From the IMG/VR virus record IMGVR_UViG_3300021356_000007, positions 1 through 64,000 of that record: a DNA stretch of 64,000 nt. One strand, 5' to 3'. Within the stretch, counting starts at the first letter, position 1. Every line of letters begins with the position of its first letter. The notes under the pieces were generated by a model. It was given only the letters and a program-made list of their open reading frames with translations. It was not told where the DNA came from and did not search any database. This document shows positions 37,136 to 42,045 of this stretch, one piece after another. A program made the position numbers and the translations under genes. The DNA comes from a virus.

Positions 37136-38389
37136 TCAGGCTGACCTATCAATTTCACCCTGAACCTTAGAACCATCTTGGCGACCCATGTTCATTGCTG
37201 CCTGCATAAGTTGCTGTCTAGCAAATTGTTGTGCCTCCGGGCTAGATGGGTCAGCGAATGCTCTCATAGTTGGTGTATTTCTTAAGCCCGGACTTAGCAT
37301 TATTTCTTTTTCTTCAGCACTCATAGGTTGCCTTTGCATGTCATCCATTGCTTGTCTCCTTGCGCCAGTCATCCTTGGCTCGAATAATTTACGAGAAACT
37401 CTCTCAGGTTTGTCCTCTTCGACAGGTGCTTCTTGTATTTTAGAACCGCCCGGTGTCATCATACCTTCGAGCATTGCTCGGATTCTATCTTCTTGGCTCA
37501 TTTCTTGAGGTGCTTCTTCTTGTTCAGGTTGAATGAATCTAGTTGTCATACCGGATAGAGGGTCTTTTCCAAAACCTCCAGTCTTCATACCTTCGACATT
37601 GCTAAGTTTTGAAGCAGACCTTTGACGAGCAAATGGATTTCTTTGGACCCTGCCAGTCTTATCACTGACTACTGGCTGATTGAATTGGTCTGTTTGCATA
37701 CCAAGGTTCAGTAAATTTTGACCTGACCTAGCACCACCTCTAACATCGAACCTACCGCCTCTGCTACCTGAAACCATACGGTCAGCAGCAGATGTCATAC
37801 CTTCTCTACCTCTTGCTCTTTCAAGCGGAGTAGTGAAACTTTGTTCAGGGTCTACATCCATCATAGGGATAGTCTGTGTAGGGTGTCTCACTTCTAGTTG
37901 CCCTGTGTTTGGGTTCAAAGCCATACTCGTACCCATTTGGTCTACCACATCTTCTCTTAGAGGACTGATGTCTCTCTCGATAGCAGCGACACTTTGAGGG
38001 ATAGGGTCACCCCTGCCTCCTCCAAGGTTACCTAGAGGAACTGGAACGCTCGCTGTCATTTCACCGGGTCTTTCTACATCACGCTGTACTGCGTCACCTC
38101 TACCACTAAAGGTATCAGTCATCCCCTCTAGTTCAGCCCTTTGCTCAGGAGTAAGCATCTCCAAATCTTTACCTCTTAGTCTGTTGAGCATACCGCCCCT
38201 CATTGTCGCTACTGGGTTCAAAACTCTTGTAGCGATACCTTGACGATTATCTAAAGCACTGTCGCCCATGTATTCATCAATGTATTCGTTAGACGGCATA
38301 CCTGCAATAGCAGGGTGAACTGTACCGTATATACCCTGTGCGCCGGGTTGTGCTTTCAATGTAGTCCAAGCGTTTTCGAGTGCGCTCAT
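37136..38389 (-). CDS. Low-complexity putative internal head protein with AWxxLK leader
   Basis: MSALENAWTTLK/AQ; M/Q/R/G/P-rich, predicted largely disordered. Confidence 0.65.
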   Translation of the reverse strand: MSALENAWTTLKAQPGAQGIYGTVHPAIAGMPSNEYIDEYMGDSALDNRQGIATRVLNPVATMRGGMLNRLRGKDLEMLTPEQRAELEGMTDTFSGRGDAVQRDVERPGEMTASVPVPLGNLGGGRGDPIPQSVAAIERDISPLREDVVDQMGTSMALNPNTGQLEVRHPTQTIPMMDVDPEQSFTTPLERARGREGMTSAADRMVSGSRGGRFDVRGGARSGQNLLNLGMQTDQFNQPVVSDKTGRVQRNPFARQRSASKLSNVEGMKTGGFGKDPLSGMTTRFIQPEQEEAPQEMSQEDRIRAMLEGMMTPGGSKIQEAPVEEDKPERVSRKLFEPRMTGARRQAMDDMQRQPMSAEEKEIMLSPGLRNTPTMRAFADPSSPEAQQFARQQLMQAAMNMGRQDGSKVQGEIDRSA

Positions 38390-39243
38390 GAGGTGGGGAT
38401 AGCGAGACCACTAAAAAAAGTGTTGATTGATTTTGCAAAGTCAGTTGCTTTCCCCAGCATCTTCTCGTCTACCCCTGTTTCAAAGCCCCAAGCGTGTAGA
38501 TGGCTGACAAGAAGGGCAGTATCAAGATTAGCCCCGCTGCCCTCTGCGAAGGGACAACCACCCAATCCCCCGATGCTAGAATCAAATTGCCTGATACCGG
38601 AAAATAAGCCAGCCCTAACAAGCCTGATTGCCTGTTCTTCTGAGCCTTTATGGTGCAAATGCAGAGCCGGAGTTAGGTCTTCTTCGTATACAATAGAAGC
38701 CCAGTCCTTTACCTCTTGCTCAGTCGCAGCACCAACCGTATCGCTGAGAACTACAGTAGAGCCTAGCATCTTCGCATCTCTGATGCAAGACTTGATTTCT
38801 GACTCAGAAAAACTACCGCTATATGGACTACCAAACGCCATGCTTATGTATACCCTAACTAAATCCTTGGGGTAAGCGTTGAGCATCGTCTTGTACATCA
38901 GAACAATTTCGCTTCGAGTCTTACCCATGTTCTTCAGGTTGAATGTCTCACAAGGGCTGAACACGATGTTGATGTAGTCCATACCTAAATCCATAGCCCT
39001 GTCAAAGCCCCTCTGATTCATGACAAGCCCAGCACCTATGCCAGTCCAAACTTCCTCTGCATCAGCCATCTGCGGCAAGATTTTCGGGTGAGCGAAACTG
39101 ACTTCCTCAATCTCAGTCAGCCCGCTGTCATACAGAAGCCCTATGAGTTTCTGTTTGTCAGAGGTAGGGACAAAGTGCTTGATGTATTGCAACCCATCTC
39201 TAGGACCAACTTCGTAGACTGTGATTTTCATAAGACCGTTCAT
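38386..39243 (-). CDS. hmgL: Hydroxymethylglutaryl-CoA lyase (DRE-TIM metallolyase)
   Basis: YEVGPRDGLQ, EEVSFAHPK..PQMAD, LSDTVG, ALHLH, FDSSIGGLGGCPFAEGSGANLDT. Confidence 0.9.
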   Translation of the reverse strand: MNGLMKITVYEVGPRDGLQYIKHFVPTSDKQKLIGLLYDSGLTEIEEVSFAHPKILPQMADAEEVWTGIGAGLVMNQRGFDRAMDLGMDYINIVFSPCETFNLKNMGKTRSEIVLMYKTMLNAYPKDLVRVYISMAFGSPYSGSFSESEIKSCIRDAKMLGSTVVLSDTVGAATEQEVKDWASIVYEEDLTPALHLHHKGSEEQAIRLVRAGLFSGIRQFDSSIGGLGGCPFAEGSGANLDTALLVSHLHAWGFETGVDEKMLGKATDFAKSINTFFSGLAIPTS

Positions 39244-39368: not shown

Positions 39369-39729
39369 CTAAACTCCCGTCTAAACTCCATCCCTCCGTC
39401 TAAACTCAGCCGTCTAAACTGCCGTCTAAACCGCAGTCCCCCAGTCTATAGACCGTATCACAGCGAGCCCGTCTAAACTCCAGTCGCTCGTAGGCGTACC
39501 TCTCGTATGTCATGCGTACCGTTGGTATTCGAAAGGGGCATTGGTGTCCATGTGAGCGAGCCAGCCCACACACTAATCGGGGTACTGCGAGCCAGTCGAG
39601 TACCAGTGGGCGGGCTGGTACTCGTGGGTAGGTGGTGGGGCGTGGGGAGTACCTCCCTCAACCCACGCATATGGGTGGTACATATTGCCCATTACCATAC
39701 TTACACGCCTAAACCCCATGTGTCTAAAC
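39369..39729 (+). repeat. Cluster of short direct repeats: five CCGTCTAAAC, eight CTAAAC cores in total
   Basis: CCGTCTAAAC at 39377, 39396, 39410, 39422, 39469; extra CTAAAC at 39369, 39709, 39724. Confidence 0.9.
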
Positions 39730-39766: not shown

Positions 39767-39810
39767 GACTGAGCCGAACTGGTTATAAAGACCCAACAAA
39801 GGAGATGTTC
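39767..39810 (+). promoter_or_regulatory. Early promoter copy 1
   Basis: GAACTGGTTATAAAGACCCAACAAAGGAGATG; TATA box at 39783. Confidence 0.8.
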
Positions 39811-39933
39811 GCCGAAAACGGCAGTCAACAACCACCTCCCCTCCCCTCCTCGACACATGGGGTGGGGCAGTACACCCTCATGGTGTACTACGGTGGTGTA
39901 CTCGAATGGTTTCGAGTGCATCAGGGTGGTTGT
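39811..39933 (+). ncRNA. Candidate ~125-nt four-way-junction RNA
   Basis: Between promoter copies 1 and 2; 10-bp closing stem enclosing three hairpins with G-U pairs (see findings). Confidence 0.6.
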
Positions 39934-39960
39934 ATATATCCTGCTAAATGATAACCGACT

Positions 39961-40004
39961 GACTGAACAGAACTGGTTATAAAAACCCAACAAAGGATAT
40001 GACT
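39961..40004 (+). promoter_or_regulatory. Early promoter copy 2
   Basis: GAACTGGTTATAAAAACCCAACAAAGGATATG; TATA at 39977; followed by TGCCGAAATCGGCA hairpin like copy 1. Confidence 0.8.
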
Positions 40005-40047: not shown

Positions 40048-40698
40048 ATGAGTAATAAACACACAATGGAACAACTGAAAGTAACAGGGGTAGCAATACC
40101 TGTGCAATTCAACGCTTGCACAGAGTTAATGAGGCAACATGTAAATGCCAAAGGTAGTGCGAAACTTGCGCTACCTATACAACCTGACGCTTTTGAGAAC
40201 GGTAGGCTTGAATGGGATGACAAGATGAACGACTTTACTAAGGCTGACATCCACAGAGGTCTTGCGGCTATCGTGAAACTGGGTCAAGAACTGAACATAA
40301 CAAATGCAAACGGACTACCAACCGCAGGTAAGGCTGTCGGTTCAAAGGCTATCCTAAGCAGTTACCACACACCTACAAGAGGCAAGAACATAGGCAAGAG
40401 ATTCTTCAACATCTTGATTGTATGGCAGAAGATTAAGCAAGCAGAGAAAGCCAACGCTAACATGCAGGCTCTTGAGGTTGCTAAGAAATTCGGTATGCAA
40501 GTCTATGTCGAAACAGTCACACTGAAAGACGGTTCGCACAGAGCATTCACTGACATCAAGAAAGCAATGGGTGCATATTGCAGACAAAACTTTGGTAATG
40601 AATGGCACAATTCGCCTAACAAAAGATTGTATCAGGCTGAAGCAATGGGTGCTATCATGTCTGCTGATGACGAAAGAATCGTTCACCCACAAGAGTGA
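40048..40698 (+). CDS. First early protein, basic, unknown function
   Basis: AGGAGAG SD, 216 aa, directly behind promoter copy 2. Confidence 0.8.
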   Translation: MSNKHTMEQLKVTGVAIPVQFNACTELMRQHVNAKGSAKLALPIQPDAFENGRLEWDDKMNDFTKADIHRGLAAIVKLGQELNITNANGLPTAGKAVGSKAILSSYHTPTRGKNIGKRFFNILIVWQKIKQAEKANANMQALEVAKKFGMQVYVETVTLKDGSHRAFTDIKKAMGAYCRQNFGNEWHNSPNKRLYQAEAMGAIMSADDERIVHPQE

Positions 40699-40722
40699 AC
40701 CTATCAAACTCATACAGAAGTA

Positions 40723-41065
40723 GTACGGCGTTATGCCGAGACCAACGATTCCCCAGCGGGGAGGGGTAGTAACAATATCCCCCGCATCACATTCCACTGG
40801 AGAGAGAATGCTGACGGGCATGGTGGCGACTGAGGTGTAAGATACCTTATCTCGAAACATCTATCTGTAACACGACCAAAGAATTCGGTCAGTGTTGAAA
40901 ACCGAGGACAACATACGCAAGTATCGAGTCGCCTGTTAGCAGACGGGAATGAACTAATCTCGTAGCGGTGAGAGATAATTGACCGCCGACTGGGTGCGAT
41001 GCCCAGTTATATTCGTGGTTGCTACCCTTCTTGGAAAATAAAGCCACACCCTCGGAGAGCCGTAT
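40723..41065 (+). ncRNA. Candidate ~345-nt structured RNA
   Basis: GC-rich island lacking a credible plus-strand ORF; nested long-range helices with G-U wobbles and a GCAA tetraloop (see findings). Confidence 0.6.
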
Positions 41066-41116
41066 GCAACCAGCATCCTCCACCTACCCACGGCATTTCA
41101 TTATCACATTCCACCA

Positions 41117-41143
41117 GCCTCTTACCTGTAAGGTAATCGAGGC
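41117..41143 (+). terminator. Stem-loop at 3' side of candidate RNA
   Basis: GCCTC-TTACCT/GTA/AGGTAA-TC-GAGGC. Confidence 0.4.
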
Positions 41144-41149
41144 ACTGCT

Positions 41150-41290
41150 AAGAAGTAGTAAGAAATAGTATAGTAATAATACAATTAATACAATATATAC
41201 AACATACTACTTTACTTTATTATAATATTAGGGGCTTACCATATTGTTGTATATTATATTCCGAACATTGAATACATTGAATTAACCATA
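41150..41290. other. Extremely AT-rich intergenic tract
   Basis: Runs such as AATAGTATAGTAATAATACAATTAATACAATATATAC; inverted repeat ATATACAACA/TGTTGTATAT. Confidence 0.7.
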
Positions 41291-41307
41291 AAAAGGAGAC
41301 TGAAAGC

Positions 41308-42045
41308 ATGACGATAGCATTTGTGAAAGGACAAAGAGCAAGAGGAAAGAGACTGATACTAACTGGCGATGCAATAGTAAGACAGTTACATGAACTAGCC
41401 GAGGATATAATCTACCATGATGTAGATGAATACAATAACTTGGGTGACGAATGCCGTGTGCCTCCTGACTATGCCGAGGCTTGTATGCTAGTAGACAATC
41501 TCAGGATAGTCACACAGAAGTTCCAAAAGATAACAGATAAGATTAGCAGGTGGGGCTATCAAAAATACTACGCTCAATCATACAAAGAAGGGAGTACCTT
41601 GAGAGAGATAGATGGCTTCGGACTTGAAGACTGGGAGTCCGAGTATCAAGAGAAAGCACACAGGTGCATGGGCAAAATACAGGAGAAGTTCGACACACTC
41701 ATGGACACAATCAAGAACCTTGAGCCCAGTGACTTGCACGATTCTATTTCCTTTTTCGACCAAAGTTATCAAGCAAGTAGCGGGAGATGGGAATACGAAT
41801 CAACGAAAGTAGTCATTGTCAAAGGGTTCGATGACTTTGGTATCGAGGACAACAGAACACGCTACAAAGATATGACACTCAAAGAAATGCATGACGCACA
41901 AGAGCAAGCGTACTGGGATAGCCTCTCCGATGCACAGAAGCAGAAGGAAGAGGAGTACGCTAAACCTGACATCACATACATGAGAGAGAACGGCTACACT
42001 TCCTTCGCATGTAATGACAACGGTACAATATCCTACTGGAGATGA
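41308..42045 (+). CDS. Early hypothetical protein
   Basis: AGGAGA SD, 245 aa. Confidence 0.75.
   Translation: MTIAFVKGQRARGKRLILTGDAIVRQLHELAEDIIYHDVDEYNNLGDECRVPPDYAEACMLVDNLRIVTQKFQKITDKISRWGYQKYYAQSYKEGSTLREIDGFGLEDWESEYQEKAHRCMGKIQEKFDTLMDTIKNLEPSDLHDSISFFDQSYQASSGRWEYESTKVVIVKGFDDFGIEDNRTRYKDMTLKEMHDAQEQAYWDSLSDAQKQKEEEYAKPDITYMRENGYTSFACNDNGTISYWR

Follow-up and report, generated by a model that had tools for sequence, protein, structure and literature searches.

What occupies the 610-nt gap that separates two rightward genes (40048-40698 and 41308-42045, both on the + strand) of a virus and that holds no credible open reading frame (ORF)? The gap lies in the window, i.e. the 64,000-nt stretch of DNA analysed here, which is the first 64 kb of a 91.9-kb IMG/VR virus record with an estimated completeness of 89%. 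From the sequence alone, an earlier note had described positions 40723-41143 as a nested, multi-domain structured RNA of ~345 nt and of no recognisable class. The locus therefore raises the questions of whether the element that fills the gap acts as an RNA, which part of it is conserved, and with what it might work.

Genomic setting of the element

The leftward late genes of the virus, among them those for terminase, portal and prohead protease, reach ~39.2 kb, and the rightward early genes start from ~40.0 kb. Marine contigs of 90-110 kb encode hundreds of relatives of the terminase, and cultured phages provided no close one; related viruses measure 95-109 kb. The virus also carries an HMGL-like auxiliary gene (window 38386-39243, - strand) and a family B DNA polymerase gene (DNA_pol_B; G000:72800-73885). 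Magroviruses are viruses of marine group II archaea and have marine genomes of ~90-100 kb with a family B DNA polymerase. HMG-CoA lyase (HMGCL) is listed as a magrovirus auxiliary gene (PMC10160649). Because of this listing, the HMGL-like and family B polymerase genes and the marine relatives, the likeliest identity is a magrovirus-like marine virus, an assignment that is based on size, DNA_pol_B and the HMGL-like gene. On the strength of the same two genes, the host is probably an archaeon. Many related contigs end within 1-4 kb of the HMGL gene, and the strand-switch region seems hard to assemble or hypervariable.

Two near-identical promoter-like boxes (39770-39803 and 39968-40001) have the form GAACTGGTTATAAA.ACCCAACAAAGGA.ATG, and each is followed by a GCCG-loop-CGGC hairpin. 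An ATG located ~22 nt downstream of a TATA-like box is an arrangement that would agree with leaderless starts in archaea. Within 40048-41150, neither a further copy of the box nor another promoter-like site was found, and the box at 39968-40001, if it is a promoter, presumably serves both the protein gene and the RNA, which would share a transcript. Downstream of the element, an AT-rich block (ACAATTA.TACAATATATACAACATACTAC) is near-identical between the window (41180-41215) and a second contig (L108:3004-3040) despite diverged surroundings; the block at 41180-41240 is likely the promoter or start of the next transcription unit, i.e. that of gene 41308-42045. The 245-aa product of this gene has a weak Pfam match to Tox-MPTase2, a metallopeptidase toxin domain (E 5e-4; 20 bits, below the cut-off of 25).

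The + strand folds and has several alternative folds

The + strand of 40700-41150 folds at -140.3 kcal/mol vs -123.2 +/- 6.4 kcal/mol for 100 dinucleotide shuffles, none of which was as good (z -2.69), while the - strand of the same region was indistinguishable from its shuffles (z -0.01). In four of the five sequences tested from other clades (described below), z was between -2.6 and -4.3. Every helix named in the earlier note was found where it had been placed. Moreover, the deviations in the long helices were G-U pairs only, as had been claimed, two of them in the 13-bp helix (40761-73/41018-30) and two in 40809-16/40934-41, and both of the local hairpins noticed, AUAC-GCAA-GUAU and GACUGGGUG/UGCCCAGUU, were present in the minimum free energy (MFE) fold. 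The 13-bp helix had an energy of -23.2 kcal/mol, which 0/60 and 1/60 shuffles matched, and the change of C40773 to U in the related sequence L120 keeps its pair as U-G.

While the individual helices thus stood, the complete nested fold was not favoured. Enforcing all six helices resulted in a structure 13.9 kcal/mol above the MFE, with the 13-bp helix alone costing 3.2 and the outer helix 3.8 kcal/mol. In the ensemble, the 3' strand of the 13-bp helix mostly pairs with the downstream GCAACC (41066-71) instead, with a pairing probability of 0.8-1.0 in clade A. We conclude that the global fold described from the window is one of several possible folds.

Homologues share a 3' core

A search by nhmmer with the element identified one related virus contig, in which only the 3' end of the element was matched. 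A pattern built from this 3' block (GCAACCAG, CUACC, UUUC and AUUC with spacers) recovered true copies in viral and metagenome contigs, and a search guided by the protein yielded a fifth clade, which is GC-rich and has drifted outside the pattern. The final sample consisted of 17 distinct sequences from marine viral and metagenomic contigs in five diverged clades: A (the window, L120, L139), B (L108, L137, L142), C (L103, L124, L130, L113/L123), D (L122, L128, L129, L134, L138) and E (L144). Other routes were unproductive. BLAST with the element and tblastn with the upstream protein and its relative P0005 detected no homologue in GenBank phages; searches for the locus with either flanking protein alone or with P0122 returned nothing; a relaxed DNA pattern gave chance matches only in viral contigs and even missed L144; and the strict pattern gave 13 matches in 185,579 species genomes, all of them by chance. 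BLAST against 34 related virus records also gave no match because the homologues, which were later found by nhmmer and a covariance model, are too diverged.

Between clades, identity was 60-80% in the core, 52-62% in the coding sequence of the upstream gene, 24-45% in its protein and 25-51%, i.e. background, in the 5' region of the element. Because of this difference between core and 5' region, the conserved unit is 41006-41145 rather than the nested region 40723-41065. The interval in the earlier note did cover the conserved stretch 41066-41143 and did not single it out as the most conserved part.

The proposal of one conserved nested architecture of ~345 nt did not survive the comparison. 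Not only is the 5' region at background identity, but its length, measured from the stop codon of the upstream gene to GCAACC, varies from 239 to 573 nt in clades A-D and reaches ~680 nt in clade E. The long-range helices could not be recovered outside clade A: the outer closing helix (40723-40/41051-65) had no counterpart in the alignments of the other clades, and complementarity corresponding to the 13-bp helix exceeded chance only in clade A. Similarly, a single partner for the GUUGCU block across clades was rejected, as the best duplexes formed at non-homologous sites and beat shuffles only in clades A and B. Finally, covariation did not support a single global fold across clades.

A module of ~100 nt (GGGGGAGUCCGAC ... 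GUUGGACUCUCCC, with two inner hairpins) occurs at L103:1620-1731, L128:1840-1936, L134:8667-8769 and L113:3078-3184. It precedes the core in some members of clade D and follows the terminal hairpin in clade C, and hairpin modules appear, from these positions, to be shuffled between elements.

Several hairpins keep their pairing despite substitutions and the element is non-coding

Selection at the RNA level, which the earlier note had read from the wobble-compatible helices of the window, was supported for several hairpins by compensatory or wobble-preserving changes but not for one global fold. In clade A, pair 40832/40848 is G-U in the window, G-C in L120 and A-U in L139, pair 40869/40896 changes from A-U to G-U, and wobble-compatible pairs are retained after four other substitutions. 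Clade B has a hairpin with two fully compensated double changes, and there one compensatory change in GUYKCUUCC covaries with the upstream GGAAGWGC. In clade C, UACCCG/CGGGUA alternates with UACCCA/UGGGUA (G-C to A-U) in two sublineages. This last stem is at the 5' end of the element (L103:1261-1298), and its loop CCGCAC is complementary to a downstream GUGCGG; judged from this complementarity, it is a probable H-type pseudoknot. In the core, covariation was weak to modest because the stems hardly vary.

No conserved ORF was found on either strand. ORFs on the - strand were ruled out by frameshifting indels between close relatives (1 nt in L120 and 2 nt in L139). Read-through of the stop codon of the upstream gene, which is UGA in 16 of the 17 sequences, was likewise rejected, as the frames downstream are not conserved and are full of indels. 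In total, we conclude that the element is non-coding and strand-specific.

Anatomy of the element

The features of the locus are listed in Table 1.

Table 1. Positions of the RNA element, its parts and the adjacent features in the window
Feature	Position	Strand	Remarks
Early promoter-like box, TTATAAA type	39968-40001	+	Second of two near-identical copies, read directly
Gene for 216-aa basic protein, pI 9.5	40048-40698	+	Uncharacterised family; upstream partner of the RNA
Whole element	40696-41145	+	Starts at the stop codon; ~450 nt, non-coding
Lineage-specific hairpin-rich 5' region	40696-41005	+	Holds most of the nested helices described; folds
13-bp helix, 5' strand	40761-40773	+	Pairs with 41018-41030; competes with GGUUGC/GCAACC
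Exact 12-nt repeat AUCACAUUCCAC, copy 1	40786-40797	+	Single-stranded motif, followed by a hairpin
Central domain	40809-40941	+	Closed by 40809-40819/40931-40941; MFE and alignment fold
Central-domain hairpins	40831-40838/40842-40849; 40868-40877/40887-40897	+	MFE and alignment fold
GCAA-tetraloop hairpin	40913-40924	+	In the central domain; MFE and alignment fold
Hairpin GACUGGGUG-CGA-UGCCCAGUU	40988-41008	+	Just before the conserved core
Conserved 3' core, 140 nt	41006-41145	+	Alignment A7; mean column identity 73%, 16 sequences
GGUUGC, 5' strand of core stem	41017-41022	+	Pairs with GCAACC 41066-41071, alternatively with 40768-40773
GCAACCAG	41066-41073	+	Most invariant octamer of the family; GCAACCUG in clade E
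G-depleted, C/A/U-rich single-stranded tract	41074-41116	+	~50 nt; unpaired in consensus folds
Exact 12-nt repeat AUCACAUUCCAC, copy 2	41103-41114	+	Inside the G-depleted tract
Terminal hairpin	41117-41143	+	Outer stem GCCUC/GAGGC, inner stem UUACC/GGUAA; all clades
AT-rich promoter-like block	41180-41240	+	Downstream of the element, shared with clade B; putative function

The two copies of AUCACAUUCCAC lie ~320 nt apart. In all clades, each element contains two to three related G-free motifs (consensus YCNYAYUCM), nearly always on the + strand and mostly immediately 5' of a hairpin; the consensus was defined after the data had been seen, so its statistics are optimistic. In every clade, the position of the hairpin that precedes the core is taken by a hairpin starting with G or by a larger module.

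In the core, each of the positions of GGUUGC is paired in 14-16 of the 16 sequences, and GGUUGC/GCAACC shows no covariation because it is nearly invariant. Its two strands enclose a small hairpin, variable in sequence and absent from clade B, as well as a conserved CAGAGAGCC-like strand. The inner six pairs of the terminal hairpin are paired in 96.9% of cases, with exchanges between U-G, C-G and U-A, and its G-U pairs work only on the + strand. The three core helices together were 89.7% paired on alignment A7 vs 33-54% for slid controls. The single-stranded tract before the terminal hairpin carries CAUUC-type motifs and has a G content of only 2-10% in all clades, at GC contents of 44-66%. The core is largely single-stranded.

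We also looked within the window for a target of the G-free tract. The one complementary site of 13-16 nt lies at 39623-39638, a G-rich hairpin region in the strand-switch zone, and forms a 16-nt inverted match (15/16 complementary) with 41077-41092 inside the tract; the two arms bracket the promoters, the protein gene and the RNA. With a chance expectation of ~0.15 for exact 13-mers, this match is borderline. An equivalent inverted repeat was not found in the other clades, and exact complementary matches elsewhere in the window were only slightly above chance.

The element belongs to no known RNA family

As the earlier note had suspected, the RNA belongs to no recognisable class: none of 4227 Rfam families matched at gathering score in an Infernal search of the whole window and of 12 homologous loci, and on 40500-41400 a search at E up to 10 returned only two matches, both at chance level. 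ARAGORN found no tRNA or tmRNA in the window. RNase P RNA, SRP RNA, tmRNA and tRNA-like RNAs were rejected for lack of a match by covariance model (cmscan) or ARAGORN, and ROOL, GOLLD, HEARO, OLE, raiA and the other large non-coding RNAs of Rfam for lack of a match at gathering score (window and 12 loci) or at E<=10 (region).

RNAs that act together with a neighbouring gene were also considered. Type III toxin-antitoxin systems have tandem antitoxin-RNA repeats upstream of an endoribonuclease toxin gene; here, the RNA lies downstream of the gene, the repeated motifs are ~320 nt apart and not in tandem, and the protein has no Pfam match, which argues against a ToxIN-like system. The proteins that partner TnpB/IscB and IS110 RNAs have a RuvC or DEDD nuclease/recombinase domain and at least 330 aa. 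With a partner of 210-240 aa that has no Pfam domain, omega or right-end RNAs of TnpB/IscB and IS110 bridge RNAs were rejected.

The element has partial likenesses to several described systems. Like ROOL and GOLLD, it is a virus-borne, strand-specific structured RNA of several hundred nt that was found by comparative genomics and has a conserved core with variable hairpins; unlike these, it is smaller, has a G-free and largely single-stranded core, is obligately linked to a protein gene and has a host that is probably archaeal, and it matches neither model. ROOL and GOLLD are not known to be tied to a partner protein. The N/nut system of phage lambda (boxA and boxB by the rut site of tR1) shares the general layout, i.e. 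a small, basic early protein and, close by on the early transcript, an RNA site that combines a single-stranded motif and a hairpin, with C-rich, G-poor unstructured RNA around the site bordering the next genes. In lambda, an arginine-rich peptide binds the boxB hairpin, and downstream terminators are suppressed. However, the sequences are not similar, the 216-aa protein has twice the length with no arginine-rich motif identified, the element measures 350-770 nt vs ~30 nt, and the host is probably an archaeon without Rho and Nus. CsrB/RsmZ RNAs also carry a short motif in several copies along one RNA, each with a hairpin, but their motif is GGA, whereas that of the viral element is pyrimidine/A-rich, G-free, present in two to three copies and fused to the mRNA of the presumed partner. 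Finally, the pRNA of phi29 is a virus-encoded structured RNA that is made early, from a site beside the switch or end region of its genome, and that works together with a viral protein, as the element presumably does too; the element differs in having no Rfam match and a partner that is neither portal nor ATPase. An essential packaging role of the phi29 type is impossible because the module is absent from most related genomes.

The RNA is strictly linked to a gene for a basic protein

Of 16 RNA copies, all 16 directly follow a gene for a homologue of the upstream protein, at whose stop codon the element begins. The protein belongs to a family of 78 clusters at 50% identity among 1.8 billion representative proteins; all members are annotated as hypothetical, and some are from Tara Oceans viral-fraction samples. 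The family is uniformly basic (pI 8.5-10.3), and some members have a C-terminal extension. Relatives were found in neither Pfam nor PHROG. The AlphaFold (AF2) model of the protein (pLDDT 75) had no fold match in the PDB by Foldseek, a wide VIA-align search had a best Z of 4.3, the ESM Atlas returned nothing usable, and no recognisable RNA-binding fold was found. A single acidic residue is invariant in an alignment of 12 members, and one column, a Trp, in an alignment of 32.

The covariance model R1, which describes the core, was run on 37 related virus records. Five records contain the protein together with sequence downstream of it, and each of these gave exactly one copy; 31 other related records, of which seven are at least 90% complete, gave none. 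Because the RNA core is present only in records that bear the protein, we conclude that RNA and protein form an accessory module that is strictly co-inherited. This module is patchily distributed among related viruses and is located first in the early region.

A proposed two-part module and its alternatives

The reading that we favour, tentatively and at somewhat less than even confidence, is that 40696-41145 (+ strand) is an RNA of a new family that is co-transcribed with gene 40048-40698 and forms a two-part module with its basic protein. We base the idea of an early-transcript RNA that works with the protein on the strict linkage to the gene for a basic protein, the start of the element at the stop codon with no intervening promoter-like site, the repeated motif-hairpin units, and a core that is more conserved than the protein. 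According to this model, the gene and the element would be made as one early transcript, in which the 5' two-thirds would supply fast-evolving, lineage-specific stable hairpins and the 3' 140 nt would be the functional core. The units of a single-stranded motif and a hairpin would be binding sites for the co-encoded protein. The RNA could then serve as scaffold for a viral ribonucleoprotein that is produced as soon as infection begins, or as the site at which the protein controls its own early transcript. Of this reading, the conservation, the strand specificity, the lack of coding, the strict linkage and the absence from known families are results, whereas co-transcription, protein binding and the biological role are inferred. 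Points against it are that the protein shows no recognisable RNA-binding fold, that the core covaries weakly, that one global fold for all clades found no support, and that the sample comprised 17 distinct sequences.

The gene linkage fits a purely cis-acting 3' UTR just as well, strict linkage being expected of a UTR. Such a UTR would set the 3' end, stability or read-through of the first early transcript, or act as a termination or processing barrier before 41308, with no special role for the protein. The element does run from the stop codon to just before the conserved promoter-like AT-rich block, and the terminal hairpin and other stable hairpins could block exonucleases. Bacterial Rho-utilisation (rut) sites are C-rich, G-poor and unstructured over 60-80 nt and need a host with Rho; the long G-poor tract resembles them. 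However, rut sites are not conserved at the level of an octamer, stability and termination elements are not usually more conserved than the gene that they serve, as this core would be, the hairpin lacks a following T-run, and the + strand revealed no terminator-like site. Moreover, the host, if it is an archaeon as the HMGL-like and family B polymerase genes suggest (PMC10160649), has no Rho. A purely cis-acting UTR is rather unlikely in our judgement. Alternatively, the RNA might be a decoy or sponge that targets some conserved component of the host, e.g. an RNase, a defence protein or a factor associated with the ribosome, with the G-free tract and the CAUUC- and CCUCC-type motifs mimicking or titrating host RNA and the protein as an accessory. 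A core that remains 60-80% identical despite GC contents of 44-66% and proteins at 24-45% suggests a slowly evolving and probably host-encoded partner; GACCUCCUA and AUCACAUUCC are strings that we take to resemble the 3' tail of 16S rRNA; and an accessory, patchy module that comes first in the early region is in the usual place of anti-host genes. That conservation of the CCUCC-like stretch is not strict (L124 and L130 have ACCACCC), that no target was found, with exact complementary matches in the window only slightly above chance, and that two to three sites make the stoichiometry of a sponge questionable together leave a decoy doubtful.

The remaining alternatives deny the RNA a role, give it a coding one or make it catalytic. 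If the 3' block acted as DNA, e.g. as operator or enhancer of the downstream promoter, as an origin or as a recombination site for the basic protein, the RNA folds would be incidental. The protein could bind DNA, and some members have the C-terminal extension; the block lies upstream of the promoter-like region, the 15/16 inverted match brackets the module, and the core stems hardly covary. We nevertheless consider a role as DNA quite improbable, since folding is strand-asymmetric, the opposite strand would have C-A mismatches in place of the G-U pairs of the terminal hairpin, the extreme G depletion affects one strand only, the distance from the core to the next gene differs by hundreds of bases between clades (e.g. 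~450 nt with an inserted module in G006), and the inverted repeat has no equivalent in other clades. A hidden short gene in the core would start at AUG 41064 after GGAG and end at 41168 after 34 codons. In clades A, B and D, no stop interrupts its frame within the core, an indel of 3 nt leaves the frame intact, and a Y-x-R-x-F pattern recurs, but G-poor sequence is naturally poor in stops. The AUG is present only in A and C, being ACG in B, D and E, and GGAG only in A; L103 and L113, which are closely related, differ by a 1-nt indel that shifts the frame; stops interrupt the frame in clades C and E; the substitutions are not biased towards third positions; and conservation reaches well upstream of the putative start. 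On these grounds the frame 41064-41168 is probably not a gene, and a coding explanation of the core is very unlikely. Least credible of all is a self-splicing intron or other ribozyme that interrupts or follows the gene, which we regard as extremely improbable. It would account for an insert of variable length between conserved ends beside the stop codon and for the GNRA hairpin, and GAGCCGUAU of clade A presumably resembles the 5' strand of group II domain V. Domain V is a 34-nt hairpin with an AGC triad, and group I introns have a conserved P3-P9 core. No model of a group I intron, group II intron or small ribozyme matched, even at E = 10 (40500-41400) or, for group I, at gathering score in the 12 loci. 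Furthermore, GAGCCGUAU is restricted to clade A and replaced elsewhere by GAGCCGGAC, GAGCCAUG, AAGCCACG and GCGCCACG, and its complement lies 330 nt away and forms no local hairpin with it. A second exon was also rejected: the protein stops at the stop codon in all clades, and none of 32 family proteins has a C-terminal extension that resembles the downstream frames.

Implications

RNA and protein each represent a new family, as no relative was found in Rfam, Pfam, PHROG or PDB, and we found no earlier report in the literature of a conserved structured RNA in the magrovirus group. Marine group II archaea, the probable hosts, rank with the most numerous microbes of the surface ocean and are not yet cultivable; almost nothing is known about how magroviruses take them over. 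The 140-nt RNA core and the 216-aa protein are small, concrete and testable parts that can be made in vitro. It is conceivable, though we think it rather doubtful, that the RNA and the protein form a ribonucleoprotein of a new kind during the first minutes after marine group II archaea are infected, in which the G-free strand would engage a conserved host RNA or enzyme of the ribosome, of RNA decay or of defence. If so, it would be the first RNA-based device for host takeover or counter-defence described for an archaeal virus. The mechanism may yet prove to be one already described, e.g. a sponge, antitermination or autoregulation.

Finally, the stretch that follows the first promoter-like copy (39805-39935) contains no ORF and has a G-free, C-rich run (CCACCUCCCCUCCCCUCCUC) followed by GGGGUGGGGCAG. 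Its words are those that build the hairpins of the clade C RNA, and the stretch may be a second small RNA with related modules.
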